Assembly: GCA_964549935.1 (NCBI GenBank)
Contig: CAZJVT010000001.1
Coordinates: 27,922-91,921 of the forward strand
Source: an uncultured Candidatus Saccharibacteria bacterium
GTDB taxonomy: Bacteria; Patescibacteriota; Minisyncoccia; UBA6257; 1-14-0-10-44-23
Direction: 5' to 3'
DNA: 64,000 bases
Within the stretch, counting starts at the first letter, position 1. Each line of letters begins with the position of its first letter. Of this stretch, positions 28,385 to 51,607 are shown in pieces. Both the position numbers and the translations under genes were made by a program. Below the pieces are notes generated by a model. The model was not told the DNA's origin. It did not search any database and worked only from the letters and a program-made list of their open reading frames with translations.

Positions 28385-28410
28385 TTAGTAGACAGTAGAT
28401 AGTAGACAGC
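28381..28410. repeat. heptamer array (GTAGNNA)x4 + GC at the pilB stop
   Basis: gtagttagtagacagtagatagtagacagc. The first TAG is the pilB stop codon. Confidence 0.55.
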
Positions 28411-28819
28411 ATGGGGCGGGGGCAAGCTGATAAAAAGCAGGAGAGTTTTTGTAATGAAATAAAAGGTAGCTCGGCTTTTTTCCTAGGGAGTAGCGAAAGA
28501 TGCCTCCAGGCGTCGAGTCTGGTGCTCTTCTGATGTTCTATGAAGCCCTGAAGACCGGAGCGGGAGCTCCGCAGTTCAGAGAGCTAGAATTTTTTAATAG
28601 AATATAAAAAGCCGCGCGGATTAACCTCTGTGCGGCCTCCCTACAAATAGAAACAACAATTAGGAGTTAGGAGGCAGGAGAAGTAGCAGCAAGGCAAAGG
28701 CATTTCGGGCGCTCTATAAGCTATCCACAGGTTATCCAGTGTGGTGCTTTGACATATTTTCCGCGTGATATACTAATTTCACGTTTTGATGACCTCTACC
28801 ATTATAGAGGTAGGGGGGC

Positions 28820-28848
28820 TTGACAAATAGGTAGATTGGTGCTATACT
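28820..28848 (+). promoter_or_regulatory. consensus sigma70-type promoter TTGACA-17-TATACT
   Basis: TTGACA at 28820-25, a 17-nt spacer, and TATACT at 28843-48. Confidence 0.45.
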
Positions 28849-28895
28849 GTATCTTAGAAGGGGTGCGCTACGTACCCTTACTACTTTGTTCTTTT

Positions 28896-29064
28896 AAAAC
28901 CGCATAGTAGTGGGCAAAATGGAATGACCCGTTGAATTGGACGACTTGGCTCCGGCTGGGGCGCTCCTCAACTTTATTCTTGGTTTCTTTTTAGATTTTC
29001 TAAGAAAGAACTTTTTATCAGTTTCCTCCCCAGGTGCTGATTTTGCCCACTACTATGCGGTTTT
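28896..29064. repeat. 169-bp element bounded by perfect 25-bp inverted repeats (MITE-like or long closing helix of a structured RNA)
   Basis: AAAACCGCATAGTAGTGGGCAAAAT (28896-28920) is the exact reverse complement of 29040-29064. The interior holds further palindromes. Confidence 0.55.
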
Positions 29065-29227
29065 GCATTTGCGAGGGCCTTCGCAGAGATGCTCGAATTT
29101 CTCAAGAACGGCAGGGGAACCTTTTACTGCCGTCTATGAGAAATTCGGGCATCTTCGATTTTTGCGCAAATGCAAAACCGAAGTCGTAGCGGTTCTGCGA
29201 TTGCGCTATCGGCGCAGCGCGGAAGGT

Positions 29228-29252
29228 AGCCGCCTTTGGCGGCTTTTTATAT
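29228..29252 (+). terminator. rho-independent terminator
   Basis: agccgccTTTggcggct hairpin followed by TTTTTAT. Confidence 0.5.
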
Positions 29253-29294
29253 TTGGTGCTTTTGGGAGAGAAGCTATATACTCAAGTTACGAAT

Positions 29295-30314
29295 ATGGCT
29301 GAAAAGAAGCTTAAGCAAGACAACGGGGAGCCCATTGATGACCGCGCCATAGACGTTATTTTGCGCCCAAGTAGCTGGGACGAGTACGTCGGGCAGGAGA
29401 AGGTCAAAAAGAACCTGCGCGTCATTTTGCAGGCTGCTATGCAGCGCGGTGAGAGCTGCGACCATCTGTTGTTTTTTGGTCAGGCCGGACTTGGCAAAAC
29501 GACGCTGGCCAACTTGGTCGCGCGCGAACTTGGCGCAAATTTAAAAACGACCTCCGGTCCGGCGATTGAAAAAATGGGTGACCTCGCCGCTGTGCTGACC
29601 AACCTTTCGAAAGGGGACGTATTATTTATCGACGAGATCCACCGCCTGAACCGACTCATCGAAGAGGTTTTGTATCCGGCGATGGAGAGTCGTAAACTCC
29701 ACCTGATTGTTGGTAAGGGCCCAGGCGCGCGGACAGTCACGCTCGACCTGCCACCGTTTACTTTAATTGCGGCGACGACACGGCCAAACTTAATTTCTGC
29801 GCCGCTACGTTCGCGTTTTGGCGCGACCTTTAAACTTGATTATTACGAGCAGCCGGACATCGAGCTCATCGTAAAACGCAGCGCGAAGATGTTTGATTTA
29901 AATATTAGCCCGGAGGCACTTCAGATTATCGCCGAGGCCTCGCGCTTCACGCCGCGTACGGCCAACAGATTGCTGCGCCGCGTGCGCGACTACGCGCAGG
30001 TACATTACAAGGAGTTGATTGACGCTGATGCTGCGCAGAAGACGCTCGAGATGTTGGAGATTGATAACCTGGGGCTTGAGCCGCACGACCGCAGAATTTT
30101 AGAAGTACTCATCGACAAGTTCCACGGTGGACCGGTCGGGCTCTCGACGCTGGCCGCGGCATTTAACGAGGACAAGGGGACTATTGAGGATGTGTACGAG
30201 CCGTACCTGATGAGCATCGGACTCCTCGTTCGCACACCGTCAGGACGACGCGCAACCGAGAAGGCCTATGACCACCTGGGTAAGTTAGATGGCAATCAAC
30301 CAAAGCTTAGCTAG
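29295..30314 (+). CDS. ruvB: Holliday junction branch-migration helicase RuvB
   Basis: LRPSSWDEYVGQEKVKKNL, Walker A GQAGLGKTTLA, Walker B DEIHRL, and a C-terminal winged helix. Confidence 0.9.
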   Translation: MAEKKLKQDNGEPIDDRAIDVILRPSSWDEYVGQEKVKKNLRVILQAAMQRGESCDHLLFFGQAGLGKTTLANLVARELGANLKTTSGPAIEKMGDLAAVLTNLSKGDVLFIDEIHRLNRLIEEVLYPAMESRKLHLIVGKGPGARTVTLDLPPFTLIAATTRPNLISAPLRSRFGATFKLDYYEQPDIELIVKRSAKMFDLNISPEALQIIAEASRFTPRTANRLLRRVRDYAQVHYKELIDADAAQKTLEMLEIDNLGLEPHDRRILEVLIDKFHGGPVGLSTLAAAFNEDKGTIEDVYEPYLMSIGLLVRTPSGRRATEKAYDHLGKLDGNQPKLS

Positions 30315-38754: not shown

Positions 38755-38897
38755 GAATTCAGTAATTTACGATTTGTAATCCTTAATTTCCAAGTAGAGG
38801 CTAGGAAAGTTAGTGGGTGTAGATTACCAGTTCTTGACAGAAAATGCAAGAGAGCAGCCCTTTGTGCTTACTGCCTGCGGGCTTTATACTGAAGGTA

Positions 38898-39473
38898 ATG
38901 ATTTACTCCCTTTCCGGCATTTTAAAACGTAAGCAGGACACCTGGGCGGTCGTCGAGGTCGCCGGAATTGGCTACAAGGTGACACTGCCGCTGTTTGTGA
39001 TGTCCCGCCTGCCCGCGACCGGTGAGCCGGTTTCGCTCGTCACGCACCACCACGTGCGCGAGGACGCCAATGACTTATACGGCTTCTTAAAAGATGAGGA
39101 GCTTTCGCTTTTTCAGTCGCTCATTTCAGTTAATGGTATCGGGCCGAAGTCGGCGATGGGCATTATGGGTGTGGCACCGGTTAACGAGCTTATCGCGGCA
39201 ATTAACGAGGGCCGCGTCGATCTTTTGTCTAAGGCCTCCGGGGTAGGCAAGAAGACGGCCGAGCGGGCTATTTTAGATTTGAAGGGCAAGCTCTCGTTTG
39301 GCGACAATACTGCGACAATCGGTAAGATGGAGTCAGACAGCGAGCTCGAGGAGACGCTGGTCGGGCTTGGCTACAGTAAGGCGCAGGCGAAAACAGCGAT
39401 TGCAAAGCTTGACCCAAAACTTACCGACTTCCACGAGCGACTGCGGGCAATCTTAAAGGAGTATAAAAAATAA
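38898..39473 (+). CDS. ruvA: Holliday junction DNA helicase RuvA
   Basis: MIYSLSGIL...GIGYKV OB domain plus HhH motifs (VNGIGPKSA, ASGVGKKTAER). Confidence 0.8.
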   Translation: MIYSLSGILKRKQDTWAVVEVAGIGYKVTLPLFVMSRLPATGEPVSLVTHHHVREDANDLYGFLKDEELSLFQSLISVNGIGPKSAMGIMGVAPVNELIAAINEGRVDLLSKASGVGKKTAERAILDLKGKLSFGDNTATIGKMESDSELEETLVGLGYSKAQAKTAIAKLDPKLTDFHERLRAILKEYKK

Positions 39474-41014
39474 TGATCACGAAGCTTAAAAATATCTACC
39501 ACCTTTTTCTAGCGTGGTTGGGTGCAGTTATCTATCGCAATCCATCGCGCGAGCTTATCGTTATCGGTATTACCGGGACAAAAGGAAAGACGACCAGCGT
39601 CGAGCTTCTCCGGGCAGTTTTACAAGCCTCCGGACGGAAAACAGCGATGCTTTCTTCGGCCAATATCGCCTTTGACAATGAGTCGCAAAGCCGTACCGGC
39701 AACACGATGCCGGGCAGATTTTTTATCCAGAAGTTTATGCGTCAGGCCGTCAGCAAGGGGTGCGAATACGCGGTGTTTGAGGTAACGAGCCAGGGCGTGG
39801 TGCAGCACCGCCACCGCTTTATTGATTTTAATGTGGCGGCGGTGACCTGTTTGCATCCGGAGCACATCGAGAGCCATGGAGGATATGAGCAGTACCGGGA
39901 AGCCAAGGCAACCTTTTTTCGCGACACCGCGCGTCTAAGTAGAAAGCAAGACAAAAAGTTTTTTATTAACTCCGAGATGACGGGCGGAGGCGATGCGCAA
40001 TTTTTCGAAGATGCAGTGCGACATCCAACCCACCTTCGCCAAGGCTTCGGCGGGCAAGCAGGGAAGGGGCATTTCGGTACGGTTACGTACTACAATAAAG
40101 CCGATTTTGTGCGCAATGAATTACAGGGCGACACAAGCCGACCCCACACCCGCCTCGCCTCCGCCCCGCGACAGCAGCCAGATTTGTCTAATACACGAAG
40201 TGACGGCGAGACAGCAGCTCGGCTGCGGCTCGACGGAAGCGACAAAGTAGTAGGCAAATCTGGTGCTGTCCCTTCGGGTTCGGACTCATCTGCTCAGCTG
40301 CGTCGTTACGCCTCGGAGCCTATGACTAGTCATATGGTCTCCTCGGCAAGCCTAGCATCTGGAGCAGATGAGTCTCGAACGCGGGGCGGAGGCGAGGCGG
40401 GTGTGGGGTCTGTCAGTAGCTGGCTGCAGAGTGATTTTAATTTAGAAAATGCGGCGATGGTCTTTGCAATCGCCAGGGCACTTGGGCTGACCAAGGAGTC
40501 AATTCTGGCGACCTTTAAAGAGTTCGCCGGCGTGGCAGGGCGGCTCGAGTTTATCCGTGGCGCAGGGCGCACAGCGGTTATTGATTACGCGCTTACGCCG
40601 GGGTCGCTAAAAGTTCTGTATGCCTATTTAAAAACTCTCGTGCAACCGGGAGGGAAGTTGATTGCGGTCTTCGGCAGCGCTGGTGGAGGCCGTGACACCT
40701 GGAAGCGTCCGGAGCTTGGTAAGCTAGCCGATGAGTTTTGCGACAAAATCTATCTGACCACGGACGACTCCTACGACGAGAACACAGAACATATCATAAA
40801 TGATATAAAAAAGGGCATCTCGAGCGCGGAGAAGTGTGAGGTGATCATTAACCGTGCCGAGGCGATTAGTGAGGCGCTGCGAGGGGCAGGAGAGAAGGAC
40901 ATCGTGGCTATTACCGGCATGGGCAGCCAGTCGTATACGTATGGCCCGGGAGGCAAAAAATTGCCGTGGAGCGATAAGGCAGCTGTCGAAAAAACACTGC
41001 GTACCTTACAATAA
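39473..41014 (+). CDS. Mur ligase family protein (MurE-like) carrying an in-frame ~90-aa low-complexity insertion
   Basis: IGITGTKGKTTS P-loop, central domain and C-terminal GRLE...DYAxxP motifs. Insertion GDTSRPHTRLASAPRQ...GGEAGVGSVSS is encoded by the IR-bounded element at 40140-40410. Confidence 0.7.
   Translation: MITKLKNIYHLFLAWLGAVIYRNPSRELIVIGITGTKGKTTSVELLRAVLQASGRKTAMLSSANIAFDNESQSRTGNTMPGRFFIQKFMRQAVSKGCEYAVFEVTSQGVVQHRHRFIDFNVAAVTCLHPEHIESHGGYEQYREAKATFFRDTARLSRKQDKKFFINSEMTGGGDAQFFEDAVRHPTHLRQGFGGQAGKGHFGTVTYYNKADFVRNELQGDTSRPHTRLASAPRQQPDLSNTRSDGETAARLRLDGSDKVVGKSGAVPSGSDSSAQLRRYASEPMTSHMVSSASLASGADESRTRGGGEAGVGSVSSWLQSDFNLENAAMVFAIARALGLTKESILATFKEFAGVAGRLEFIRGAGRTAVIDYALTPGSLKVLYAYLKTLVQPGGKLIAVFGSAGGGRDTWKRPELGKLADEFCDKIYLTTDDSYDENTEHIINDIKKGISSAEKCEVIINRAEAISEALRGAGEKDIVAITGMGSQSYTYGPGGKKLPWSDKAAVEKTLRTLQ
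40140..40410. repeat. 271-bp GC-rich element with perfect 31-bp terminal inverted repeats embedded in-frame in the Mur ligase CDS
   Basis: GACCCCACACCCGCCTCGCCTCCGCCCCGCG (40140-40170) is the exact reverse complement of 40380-40410. The interior has a 14-bp palindrome TATGACTAGTCATA. Confidence 0.6.
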
Positions 41015-45371: not shown

Positions 45372-45443
45372 GTCTCCGTAGTTCAACGGATAGAATATCT
45401 CCCTCCGAAGGAGATGATTGTGGTTCGATTCCACACGGGGACA
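45372..45443 (+). tRNA. tRNA-Arg (anticodon CCG)
   Basis: Manual cloverleaf fold: 7-bp acceptor stem with one G·U, D-arm, anticodon stem-loop with loop CTCCGAA, T-arm GTGG-TTCGATT-CCAC, discriminator A. CCA is not encoded. Confidence 0.75.
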
Positions 45444-45466
45444 CAGCGTGGTATTATTGCGAAACT

Positions 45467-46181: not shown

Positions 46182-47378
46182 ATGAAGAAAAACCTAGTCC
46201 TCGGGGTCGTTATCGTATTAGTCATCGGCTCGATACTTTGGCTGCAGTCGCTTAAGCCTAAGCCTGCCCTGACGAGCGGACCAAAACAGACCATTGTTGC
46301 TACCTCGACTGACACCATTGCTACCTCGCCGGTTAAGCCAATTAAGTCTTCTATGCAGTATCTTACTGCTGCTCAAAAGGCGAAGAAGTATCAGCCAGGG
46401 ATAGAGCTTGCGGGAATTAGTAGCTATCACAATCTTTCGCCTGATAAAAAAACGCTAACTCTTAAGGATTTAGTGGGCAAGAAAGTGATTTTAGTTGATT
46501 TCTGGACTTACAGCTGCATTAATTGCCAGCGCACGTTACCGTATCTTACTGATTGGTATAAGAAGTATAAAGATCAGGGGCTCGAGATTATCGGAGTCCA
46601 CACACCGGAATTTGATTTCGAAAAAGATCCGACTAACGTCGACATGGCGATAGCAAAATATGGCATTAGATATCCCGTGGTTCAGGACAACGACTATGGC
46701 ACATGGAATGCGTATGGCAACCGCTACTGGCCACATCACTATCTTATTGATATCGATGGATATATCGTCGACGACCATATAGGCGAGGGAGGGTATGCTG
46801 AAACAGAAATGAAAATCCAAGAGCTACTCGCGGAAAGAAGCGATAGGCTGAATATAGTGGCGGATGTTCAAAAGGATCTATCCAAGCCGGTCGTGGAAGC
46901 GGCACCGACATATGCGGTTAGTCCGGAGACATATTTTGGTAGCAGCCGCAATGAGTATCTCGGGAATGGTGTGCCCGGGCAAACAGGGACGCTTGATTTT
47001 ACTTCTTGGCCGTCGGCTGAGTCTGGCGATCTGAAAGAGAACAAGCTTTATTTAAGCGGGACCTGGATGTTGAACGCCGAGAATGCAGTCAGTAAGAGCC
47101 GAGGCGGTATTATGTATGCGTACCATGGCCAGCGGGTGTATTTTGTGGCTCGAGCAGGGCAGCCCCTTACCGTGGAGCTTCTCCGCGATCTTAAGCCGCT
47201 CACTGCGGATGAAGCAGGAGAAGATGTGATTATCGGCGCTGACGGCAAGAGTCGAGTCACTATTAATGAGGCGCGCCTATATAAACTCGTTAAAGAGCGA
47301 GCAGGTGATCCTGGTCATGTGCTCAACATTATTGTTCCGGAGGCGGGTCTCGAGGCCTTCACCTTTACGTTCGGTTAG
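46182..47378 (+). CDS. TlpA/ResA-like thioredoxin-fold thiol:disulfide oxidoreductase with C-terminal extension
   Basis: Signal anchor and a VILVDFWTYSCINCQ CxxC motif. Confidence 0.7.
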   Translation: MKKNLVLGVVIVLVIGSILWLQSLKPKPALTSGPKQTIVATSTDTIATSPVKPIKSSMQYLTAAQKAKKYQPGIELAGISSYHNLSPDKKTLTLKDLVGKKVILVDFWTYSCINCQRTLPYLTDWYKKYKDQGLEIIGVHTPEFDFEKDPTNVDMAIAKYGIRYPVVQDNDYGTWNAYGNRYWPHHYLIDIDGYIVDDHIGEGGYAETEMKIQELLAERSDRLNIVADVQKDLSKPVVEAAPTYAVSPETYFGSSRNEYLGNGVPGQTGTLDFTSWPSAESGDLKENKLYLSGTWMLNAENAVSKSRGGIMYAYHGQRVYFVARAGQPLTVELLRDLKPLTADEAGEDVIIGADGKSRVTINEARLYKLVKERAGDPGHVLNIIVPEAGLEAFTFTFG

Positions 47379-48173: not shown

Positions 48174-48725
48174 ATGCAGTTACAACCTAATATTAACGCC
48201 CCAGCTGATGCTGGGACGCAAAAAATTATTTCCGCAGGGATTATTGTATTTCGGAAGACGCAGGAGGGCGTTAAGTTTTTGGTGCTCTACCACGGCGGTG
48301 ATTACTGGAACTTCCCGAAGGGGAAGCTTGAGGTGGCCGAGCGTAGTTGGCAGGCGGCTTTTCGCGAGGTTCGAGAGGAGACCGGGCTCAAGCAAAATGA
48401 GCTTAAGCTTGTTGGAGACTTCAAGGCTTATGAGAAGTTTTACTTCAAGCGCGGCGCCGATAAGATTTTCAAAGTCGTTATTTTGTATCTGGCCGAGACA
48501 AAACAATCCCGCATTACGCTGAGTGAGGAGCACGAAGGGTACGGCTGGTTCACGTTTTCTCAGGCGAAAAAGATTTTGGCGCGGCACAAAGACAATTTGC
48601 GTATTTTAAACCAGGCTTACGCGTATTTAACGCGCGGGCCGCAGGCGATGCCTGTCCAACCAGCTGCCACTGTAGCTGCTGGCGCTGCGCATCCACAACG
48701 TCGACCACCGCATCCGCGGCACTAA
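48174..48725 (+). CDS. NUDIX hydrolase
   Basis: NUDIX box GKLEVAERSWQAAFREVREETGL. Confidence 0.7.
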   Translation: MQLQPNINAPADAGTQKIISAGIIVFRKTQEGVKFLVLYHGGDYWNFPKGKLEVAERSWQAAFREVREETGLKQNELKLVGDFKAYEKFYFKRGADKIFKVVILYLAETKQSRITLSEEHEGYGWFTFSQAKKILARHKDNLRILNQAYAYLTRGPQAMPVQPAATVAAGAAHPQRRPPHPRH

Positions 48726-49405
48726 CGTTTAAACTGTTTGACGACACCAAGAGGGAATCGCTGATTGGAGAGAGCATCTTCGGCGAGTTGGCGGGCAACC
48801 CAGTTGCGGAAAGCTCCATCCTGGATGAGCTTTTGCAATTCTTCACGGGAGACCCAGGCGAGCGAGACGGTTTCTTTGGTAGGGCGCTGGATTTGGTTAA
48901 CGTCTTTTAAGATGCCAGAGAAGTTAAAGCGCACGGTGATACGGTCTTTTTTGCGGTCGTTGCTGTTGTTTTTAGTACGGTAGTAATAAACACTGACGAC
49001 GTGCTTAAGTTCGGCCTCATAACCGGTTTCTTCGACGACCTCACGGCGGGCGGTCTGTTCGATCATTTCGTCCAGGTGTGCTTTACCGGAAGGGAAGTTA
49101 TAGGAGGCCTTGCCGTCAGTGAGCTCTTTGATGACTAAAAACTCGGTCTTCTGTCCCGGGCCGGTTTCGCCACTTTGCCCCGCCTTCTGGGCTGCACCTT
49201 GTCGCACAGATTCACCAGGCCCTACGGGCCTTGCTGAATCTGCTTGACTTCGGTTCGCCGCAGAATGCGAGTCAAATTGATCAAAAGCGCCCGAGGCAGA
49301 AGGCCGTTCGCGCTCCAAAACGACTCCGGCGCTGATGTTAACGACGTTGGCATGGGCTAAGATTGAGGCTTTGTCGGTTGCTCCGCGCATATGGTAAGTA
49401 TACAA
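48722..49405 (-). CDS. NUDIX hydrolase with ~50-aa GC-rich low-complexity insertion
   Basis: NUDIX box SGKAHLDEMIEQTARREVVEETG. Stop codons of the two convergent NUDIX genes overlap (CTAA). Confidence 0.65.
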   Translation of the reverse strand: MYTYHMRGATDKASILAHANVVNISAGVVLERERPSASGAFDQFDSHSAANRSQADSARPVGPGESVRQGAAQKAGQSGETGPGQKTEFLVIKELTDGKASYNFPSGKAHLDEMIEQTARREVVEETGYEAELKHVVSVYYYRTKNNSNDRKKDRITVRFNFSGILKDVNQIQRPTKETVSLAWVSREELQKLIQDGAFRNWVARQLAEDALSNQRFPLGVVKQFKR

Positions 49406-51176: not shown

Positions 51177-51279
51177 GTGTAGACCTCGAGTATGTGACAT
51201 TGCTTGCGAGTCGCTTGTCGAAGCGGTCGCAGCTGTAAAGAGCATTTCGCAAAGCTCCTTGCAGCTGCGACCTATTTGA

Positions 51280-51607
51280 GGTGGAGTTGGGGATATCGAA
51301 ATCCCGTCCAAAAGTTTCTGCAATAACAGTCTACAAGCTTAGGATCGAAACAAGTTCGAAGCGAATGAACTCTAAGTTTTAGTGATGCGCGTAGAGTTCA
51401 ATCGGCGCATCCTTATTCCCAGATATAACACCAGTATTCCGACTATGGGAAGTTATCGGACTGATGGCTTACGCTAGGCGTAGGCTAAAGCAAAATTGCT
51501 CTGACGAGTAAAGTTGGCAGTTTATGATTTTTGGATCAGATTTACGAGTTAATCCTGCTCGGCTTGCATGTTATTACAAAGAACGATTGTCGAAGCCTGG
51601 CAACCCC
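51280..51607 (-). ncRNA. ssrA: tmRNA (ssrA)
   Basis: Minus-strand 5' GGGGTTGCCAGGCTTCGACAATCG... and 3' ...GGACGGGATTTCGATATCCCCAACTCCACC. G3·U70 acceptor pair, T-arm GGATTTCGATATCC. Tag reading frame GCC AAC TTT ACT CGT CAG AGC AAT TTT GCT TTA GCC TAC GCC TAG at 51518-51474. Immediately downstream of smpB. Confidence 0.7.

Follow-up and report, generated by a model that had tools for sequence, protein, structure and literature searches.

The stretch of DNA considered here, called the window throughout, comprises 64,000 nt from an uncultured Candidatus Saccharibacteria bacterium (assembly GCA_964549935.1, contig CAZJVT010000001.1, positions 27,922 to 91,921) and carries a gene for a MurE-type Mur ligase into which a 270-nt nested palindrome has been inserted without loss of the reading frame. 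The host protein belongs to the Mur ligase family and has a P-loop of the GxxGKT form; Pfam recognises Mur_ligase_M and Mur_ligase_C in its 513 residues (E=1e-25 and 9e-22), its nearest solved structures are those of MurE (7b6o and 1e8c; PDB match E=5e-46), and the N-terminal Mur domain is missing, as it is from orthologues in the Candidate Phyla Radiation (CPR). The bacterium itself is a Paceibacteria-like member of the CPR. The inserted segment is read through in frame and is homologous to a dispersed family of sequences that are conserved for fold-back pairing and not for coding.

The limits of the insertion are set by comparison with orthologous genes. Among 7,467 homologues scored, the best 120 were inspected for the segment; these are CPR proteins (Paceibacteria, Harrisonbacteria and similar) of 321–448 residues, and the segment is present in the source protein only. 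The orthologues, 400–448 residues in length, all lack it, and in the alignment with them its residues follow GD(T)SR and precede VSxWLQ. Deletion of 40141–40410 joins GDTSR directly to VSSWLQ, with a length equal to that of the orthologous GDRKR–VSQWLQ, and the site is uninterrupted at the codon level in both syntenic relatives used, L001 (GCA_964641225.1) and L003 (a JGI metagenome), in which the flanking gene order is kept. Within the protein, the insert comes towards the end of the central domain, directly before the part that aligns to residues ~290–300 of E. coli MurE, and no direct repeat was found flanking it. Its GC content is 62%, against 52% for the remainder of the gene and 51.5% for the window, and its GC by codon position (0.68/0.65/0.53) departs from the values for the gene (0.55/0.41/0.59). 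Of the six frames of the element, only the one used by the MurE-type open reading frame (ORF) lacks stops; this frame encodes a low-complexity peptide without family match. A sequence-only reading made earlier, from the letters of the window and a list of its ORFs, had described a GC-rich element of 271 bp, in frame between central- and C-terminal-domain motifs of a Mur ligase, bounded by perfect 31-bp inverted repeats and read through without stops, and had proposed an orthologue alignment as a check. The repeats, the stop-free frame, the raised GC and, roughly, the position have all been borne out, and the alignment does give orthologues without the segment; the in-frame insertion stands too, its length being strictly 270 nt, with one base of the 31-nt repeat common to element and target.

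An AlphaFold2 model built with 50 homologues leaves residues 224–307 below 50 in the predicted local distance difference test (pLDDT), while its mean pLDDT is 82 and most blocks of the enzyme exceed 90; the insert is therefore predicted to form a disordered loop, the remainder of the ligase being well folded. A second window-specific insertion in the same gene, at 40031–40060, adds 10 residues (HLRQGFGGQA), is unstructured (folding z=0.1), has lower pLDDT and looks like an ordinary indel. Further upstream, the native gene sequence GGGCGGAGGCGATGCG at 39982–39997, which codes for the conserved TGGGDA, agrees with the right arm of the element (40384–40399) at 15 of 16 positions; local templating from this match was considered and rejected, and the match is taken as probably chance, no other copy matching its host in this way.

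Two arms of 31 nt, 40140–40170 and 40380–40410, are 100% complementary and enclose 209 nt (Table 1); two inverted-repeat matches were found in the window against none expected from shuffles of it. In the predicted fold, a 30-bp outer stem closes a fully stacked four-way junction formed with arm A, a mini-hairpin and arm B. The folding z-score is −14.3 for RNA of one strand, −13.4 for RNA of the other and −13.7 with DNA parameters, and a sliding 300-nt scan places the element among the two most structured regions of the window.

Table 1. Positions in the window of the host gene and of the parts of the inserted element.
Feature	Position	Strand	Basis or remark
MurE-type Mur ligase (UDP-MurNAc-tripeptide synthetase family), host gene, 513 amino acids	39473-41014	+	ORF, Pfam, PDB relatives; element read through
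Insertion of 270 nt (90 codons) relative to all orthologues	40141-40410	+	Protein alignment, codon-level empty sites in L001 and L003, deletion variants; boundary ambiguous by 1-2 nt
Outer stem P1, left arm	40140-40169		Perfect 31-nt repeat spans 40140-40170; sequence differs among copies, pairing kept
Outer stem P1, right arm	40381-40410		Perfect 31-nt repeat spans 40380-40410
Junction motif CGCGACAGC, base of P1 and start of arm A	40167-40175	+	Invariant in the alignment except in L018 (Comamonas; T for the final C); part of the search pattern, so that conservation in pattern-found copies is by construction
Arm A, imperfect hairpin of ~100 nt	40170-40270		Folds; 13 of 18 basal pairs covary (helix 3)
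Central motif CTGTCCCTTCGGGTT: end of arm A, mini-hairpin, start of arm B	40266-40280	+	Alignment, folds; the Comamonas copy has CCCTCCGGG
Mini-hairpin of 2 bp (CC/GG)	40271-40277		Fold
Arm B, imperfect hairpin of ~100 nt	40278-40380		Folds; 18 of 22 pairs covary (helix 9)
AACGCG, end of arm B and base of P1	40378-40383	+	Invariant in 9 of 9 copies, though outside the search pattern

A phmmer scan of the 90-residue insert against 1.84 billion representative proteins recovered the same segment of ~88 residues, at 47–58% identity, inside four unrelated proteins: a DnaQ/RNase_T exonuclease (P0121; DNA in L005), a bacterial PGI/SIS protein (P0123; L006–L008), RsmA/KsgA (P0124; L009) and a 117-residue Dus-like N-terminal fragment (P0122; protein match only). 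The segment splits the RNase_T and RrnaAD domains as delimited by Pfam. The same architecture appears in the folded DNA of three of the four carriers (P0121, P0123 and P0124), namely a ~30-bp outer stem, the junction CGCG/ACAGC…GCTGT/CCCTTCGGG/TT…AA/CGCG and two hairpin arms of ~100 nt; the outer stem differs in sequence from copy to copy and keeps its complementarity, the conserved blocks are CGCGACAGC, CTGTCCCTTCGGGTT and AACGCG, and the internal loops of arm A are conserved within the CPR subfamily. Word-indexed protein searches with the 90-residue peptide or the five-member alignment returned nothing or only P0122. Such indexed negatives on low-complexity peptides are unreliable, because the word-indexed search missed even the source protein, together with carriers that exhaustive phmmer found.

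On the DNA level, sequence collections were scanned with the core pattern CGCGACAGC-N{70,100}-TGTCCCTTCGGGTT; these scans demanded exact core motifs, and the family size and host range given here are therefore lower bounds. They returned the PGI copy again, in Candidatus Harrisonbacteria nzgw427 (L013), and a copy in a relative of the window organism (L016) that lies in a 3′ untranslated region (3′ UTR), between the rpsT stop codon and its terminator; a 602-kb Harrisonbacteria contig held one strict match. Occupancy by the element differs between relatives at two sites: the rpsT–holA spacer is empty in the window and filled in L016, and at the MurE site only the window carries the element. Exact 22–25-mers of the window's terminal repeat matched nothing in viral, GTDB-representative or JGI metagenome contigs, collections that do not contain the source genome, the termini being hypervariable.

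The same scans found intergenic copies in a Methylophilaceae metagenome-assembled genome (MAG; L010), a soil metagenome (L017) and a Motiliproteus MAG (L012). Matches in Tabrizicola (L011) and Solirubrobacterales (L014) lack the architecture and are taken as chance, and one further match (L015) is neither assigned to the family nor dismissed as chance. BLAST identified a copy in a 372-kb replicon of Comamonas odontotermitis (NZ_CP083452.1), with matches at seven places; the 107 kb of this replicon that were examined contain one full copy and three deletion derivatives with the same termini and 85–100% identity, which makes at least four copies or derivatives in that part. A single identical base flanks three of three recent Comamonas copies, and no empty site of the Comamonas copy was found in plasmid records. 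Searches of the E. coli genome gave no relative of the element, and a phage search gave four marginal 39-nt matches (E=0.02) in Vibrio phage terminase genes, taken as chance.

Lone hairpins that are 80–87% identical to the Comamonas arm A lie on Cupriavidus basilensis pRK1-5 (L021, ~1455–1620) and in Ralstonia sp. RRA.1 (L022, ~1440–1700), each enclosed by a different, unrelated outer stem of ~28 bp. That Cupriavidus and Ralstonia plasmids carry an arm-A-like hairpin alone in a different stem suggests that the arms are exchangeable or independently mobile modules. The Cupriavidus hairpin is situated 90–130 bp from a transposase gene of the IS481 family. The intergenic copies L010 (2058–2267, plus strand) and L017 (271–558, minus strand) each contain one stop-free frame, which would code for a peptide of ~70–95 residues with a hydrophobic tail and which is not conserved in Comamonas or Motiliproteus; a small hydrophobic ORF as a feature of these copies was rejected, there being no conserved start or peptide and a frame unlike the CPR frame left of the junction. 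A partial Comamonas copy (L020, 40020–40152) lies directly 3′ of ruvA, and the host gene in the window likewise follows ruvA (38844–39473); a structured region at 28.9–29.25 kb of the window precedes ruvB, and the element mimics a four-way junction. The proximity of element, ruvA and ruvB is probably coincidence.

What has been kept through the divergence of these copies is pairing. In the alignment of nine copies, 92.4% of cells are paired; shuffling lowers this to 70.0±1.2%, and sliding the partners to 35–43%. Of 78 pairs, 57 have changed on both sides; one-sided (wobble) changes are rare and the pairs are almost only of the Watson–Crick type. Core identity is 66–75% among CPR copies and ~40–47% between CPR and proteobacterial copies. 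The outer stem is free in sequence and constrained to pair, because L010 and L017 share 92% of their core and 61% of their outer stem. For codon positions 1, 2 and 3, mean pairwise differences come to 0.27, 0.30 and 0.33 over the core and to 0.48, 0.48 and 0.49 over the outer stem; the peptide is not under selection, and pairing and junction sequence are conserved instead. The two strands contain 34 and 43 G·U pairs and have summed minimum free energies of −1355 and −1363 kcal/mol, and the orientation of copies relative to neighbouring genes is mixed; the constraint is strand-symmetric and DNA-like. A perfect outer stem (31/31) is peculiar to the window copy; the others have 1–6 mismatches or indels, with 25–32 matched positions.

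We consider the window feature to be a copy of a family of ~270-nt non-autonomous, nested-palindromic mobile DNA elements that is tolerated as a surface loop, and assign this interpretation a probability of about 0.7. A MITE-like insertion (miniature inverted-repeat transposable element) accommodated as a surface loop was one of the options offered by the sequence-only reading, and it gains support from the family at unrelated sites and from the AlphaFold2 disorder at 224–307. The elements would be selfish mobile DNA, recognised as folded (hairpin or cruciform) DNA by an enzyme that acts in trans. In gene-dense CPR genomes, which offer few other targets, most landings would fall in genes, and the only insertions expected to survive in essential genes would be those that keep the frame, carry no stop and sit at a permissive place on the protein surface. 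The window copy is probably young or recently homogenised, because its outer stem alone is perfect; the sequence-only reading had proposed a recent event or active maintenance, and both halves of that proposal find something in their favour, the former in this unique stem and the latter in pairing that is kept family-wide. The long perfect helix would exist in the mRNA too, where it could affect stability or translation.

Several observations weigh against this interpretation. No transposase or recombinase is linked to the element, and no target-site duplication of 2 bp or more occurs at any copy. Conservation is lowest at the termini and highest in the centre, the reverse of what ordinary MITEs show. 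BLASTN and nhmmer found no other copy in the 64-kb window, and the 238 kb of loci examined never contain more than one copy per locus. Some features are RNA-like, namely the CCCUUCGGG hairpin and the purine-rich internal loops on the sense strand. Finally, the proposed homology between CPR and proteobacterial copies depends on ~30 junction bases, 23 of which were imposed by the search pattern, together with like architecture and size. No cognate autonomous insertion sequence was seen in the loci examined, a genome-wide search not having been made.

A more far-reaching proposal, which we put forward tentatively and would sooner doubt than accept, is that the family is an undescribed class of mobile DNA spanning phyla, from CPR bacteria to Beta- and Gammaproteobacteria, that is defined by its four-way DNA junction and not by its termini and is moved by a structure-specific recombinase, or else is removed at the RNA level as a new intron-like element; it would be the CPR counterpart of the coding palindromes of Rickettsia and a recurrent source of disordered segments in essential genes. 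A literature search, which included the core motif as text, returned no description of this family, nor of such elements in CPR bacteria.

The alternative that fares best, while still unlikely, is a functional structured RNA in transcripts (an RNase III-type processing or stability element, a ribozyme or a self-excising intron-like sequence), of which the DNA palindromy would be a by-product. The extremely stable fold (z=−14.3), the very strong covariation, the junction nucleotides kept across phyla, and the conserved cUUCGg-like mini-hairpin with A/G-rich internal loops on the CPR sense strand would all suit such an RNA. However, neither strand folds better than the other and their G·U counts are close, wobble pairs are few, the conserved junction bases are all paired, so that there is no conserved unpaired core, and the proteobacterial copies stand in either orientation to flanking genes. 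Moreover, every genic copy maintains an open frame, which would be needless under excision, and the Rfam 15 covariance models give nothing relevant at E≤10 for 39950–40600 and nothing at E≤1 for six related loci. Group I and II intron and ribozyme readings were rejected for want of an Rfam match, and an intein was rejected on inspection of the insert, which has no intein-type junction residues.

It is very improbable that the ~90 residues form a protein module kept by selection, as an insertion domain with a function in the ligase. The same peptide is indeed found in five proteins at 47–58% identity, but these are functionally unrelated, its substitutions show no codon-position bias, its codon-position GC is unlike that of the gene, AlphaFold2 renders it disordered, and a homologous copy in the rpsT 3′ UTR is non-coding. 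There is next to no room for an invertible segment, the other option of the sequence-only reading, in which recombination at the perfect 31-bp repeats would flip the 209-bp core and create two protein variants or an on/off switch: the flipped core contains two in-frame stop codons and one frame in six is open, the conserved syntenic neighbours are housekeeping genes without an invertase or other recombinase among them, and the homologous copies have imperfect stems and lie in unrelated genes or intergenic DNA. Equally hard to credit is an artefact of assembly or amplification, or a unique palindrome made in place by template switching. The source is a metagenome-assembled genome and this exact copy was found once only, but assemblies made independently (NCBI, ENA, Logan and JGI) and the finished Comamonas replicon contain homologues built in the same way, the inserted length is divisible by three and uses the one frame that is open, and the 15/16-nt match described above, unrepeated in other copies, is its sole homology to the flanks.

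A close parallel to the proposed mobile element is provided by the Rickettsia palindromic elements (RPEs), which, as far as the summary of Ogata et al. 2000 in PMC10969869 describes them, are short, non-autonomous palindromic repeats of ~100–150 bp, inserted in frame in unrelated housekeeping genes and translated as an extra peptide where the host fold can accommodate it, the genome being reduced and short of intergenic DNA. The present element has these traits in common with them, except for the length; it too is a palindrome in frame in unrelated genes (MurE-type, DnaQ-like, PGI/SIS, RsmA and the Dus-like fragment). It differs in being about twice as long (270 versus ~100–150 bp), with a four-way junction instead of a simple hairpin, in its conserved centre and variable termini, in its low copy number in the sampled CPR genomes, and in having intergenic relatives in free-living Proteobacteria. 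We liken it to RPEs by its behaviour and suggest that it works like one, in CPR and Beta/Gammaproteobacterial hosts, without claiming it as one. Coding palindromes of another kind are found in mitochondrial genes of Nematomorpha, where both arms code for conserved parts of the host protein (PMC6649704). These also are long perfect inverted repeats inside protein-coding genes that are read through, whereas here the entire palindrome is an extra insertion missing from orthologues.

Intragenic MITEs of bacteria, such as ERIC/RU-1, Correia and BOX (PMC2759123, PMC10969869, PMC3184786), share with the element a small size (below ~500 bp, without a transposase ORF), terminal inverted repeats, a stable fold-back, occasional in-frame fusions to host ORFs and, in at least one genome (Comamonas), multiple copies with deletion derivatives. 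Unlike them, the element has no target-site duplication of at least 2 bp and no identified cognate insertion sequence, and its terminal repeats evolve faster than its interior, whereas MITE termini are normally conserved and bind the transposase. In integron attC sites and the attP hairpin of CTX phage, structure is conserved, the stem sequence is free and a few bases at fixed positions are conserved. The element likewise keeps its structure, varies its stem sequence and holds a small number of bases constant at set places, but it lacks R/L-box cores (GTTRRRY) and an integrase or Xer context, and its size and branching differ. The likeness to attC is offered as an analogy for how the element might be recognised and not as membership.

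In-frame coding palindromes, best known from Rickettsia, are present in the CPR too; if the element is mobile DNA of the kind proposed, selfish DNA is written there into essential enzymes (MurE, RsmA and a DnaQ-like exonuclease) that survive the insertion. The unusual signature of a conserved centre, free but paired termini, strand symmetry and Watson–Crick pairs only offers a concrete starting point from which phylogenetic profiling could trace a mobilisation enzyme that recognises structure. The element also explains why CPR protein catalogues contain proteins of outlying length and low-complexity 'domains', and such segments are better treated as element-derived than as functional domains.

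Further structured or inserted segments lie elsewhere in the window. The sequence-only reading had pointed to a similar insertion in a NUDIX gene (48725–49390), and compared with a 78%-identical orthologue in L001 this gene does contain an in-frame insertion of 53 amino acids (159 nt; 49151–49309, minus strand), which folds as one long hairpin with imperfect pairing (z=−5.7 over 211 nt, −4.3 over 141 nt) and codes for a Ser/Ala/Gly/Gln-rich segment; the resemblance does not extend to sequence similarity with the MurE element. It may represent a second family of coding palindromes. Between a pilB-like T2SSE gene and ruvB, 28385–29295 is ~900 nt of non-coding sequence in a compact genome. It contains a near-consensus promoter (TTGACA-17-TATACT) at ~28820–28850, followed by ~390 very structured nt (z=−9.7), in which a perfect 25-nt inverted repeat (28896–28920/29040–29064) closes a branched fold; a long hairpin at 29065–29180 and a terminator-like hairpin at ~29226–29250 are also present. 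Rfam gave no match above noise in this region, which could hold an undescribed non-coding RNA or further palindromic elements. The MurE element, the NUDIX hairpin and the two hairpins upstream of ruvB have no sequence in common. Relative to L001, a thioredoxin/AhpC-like gene has a window-specific insertion of 25 amino acids (46965–47039) with no unusual fold (z=0.7). The window also contains an ordinary transfer-messenger RNA gene (51279–51607, minus strand; Rfam 105 bits) and a tRNA-Arg(CCG) gene (45372–45444, plus strand).

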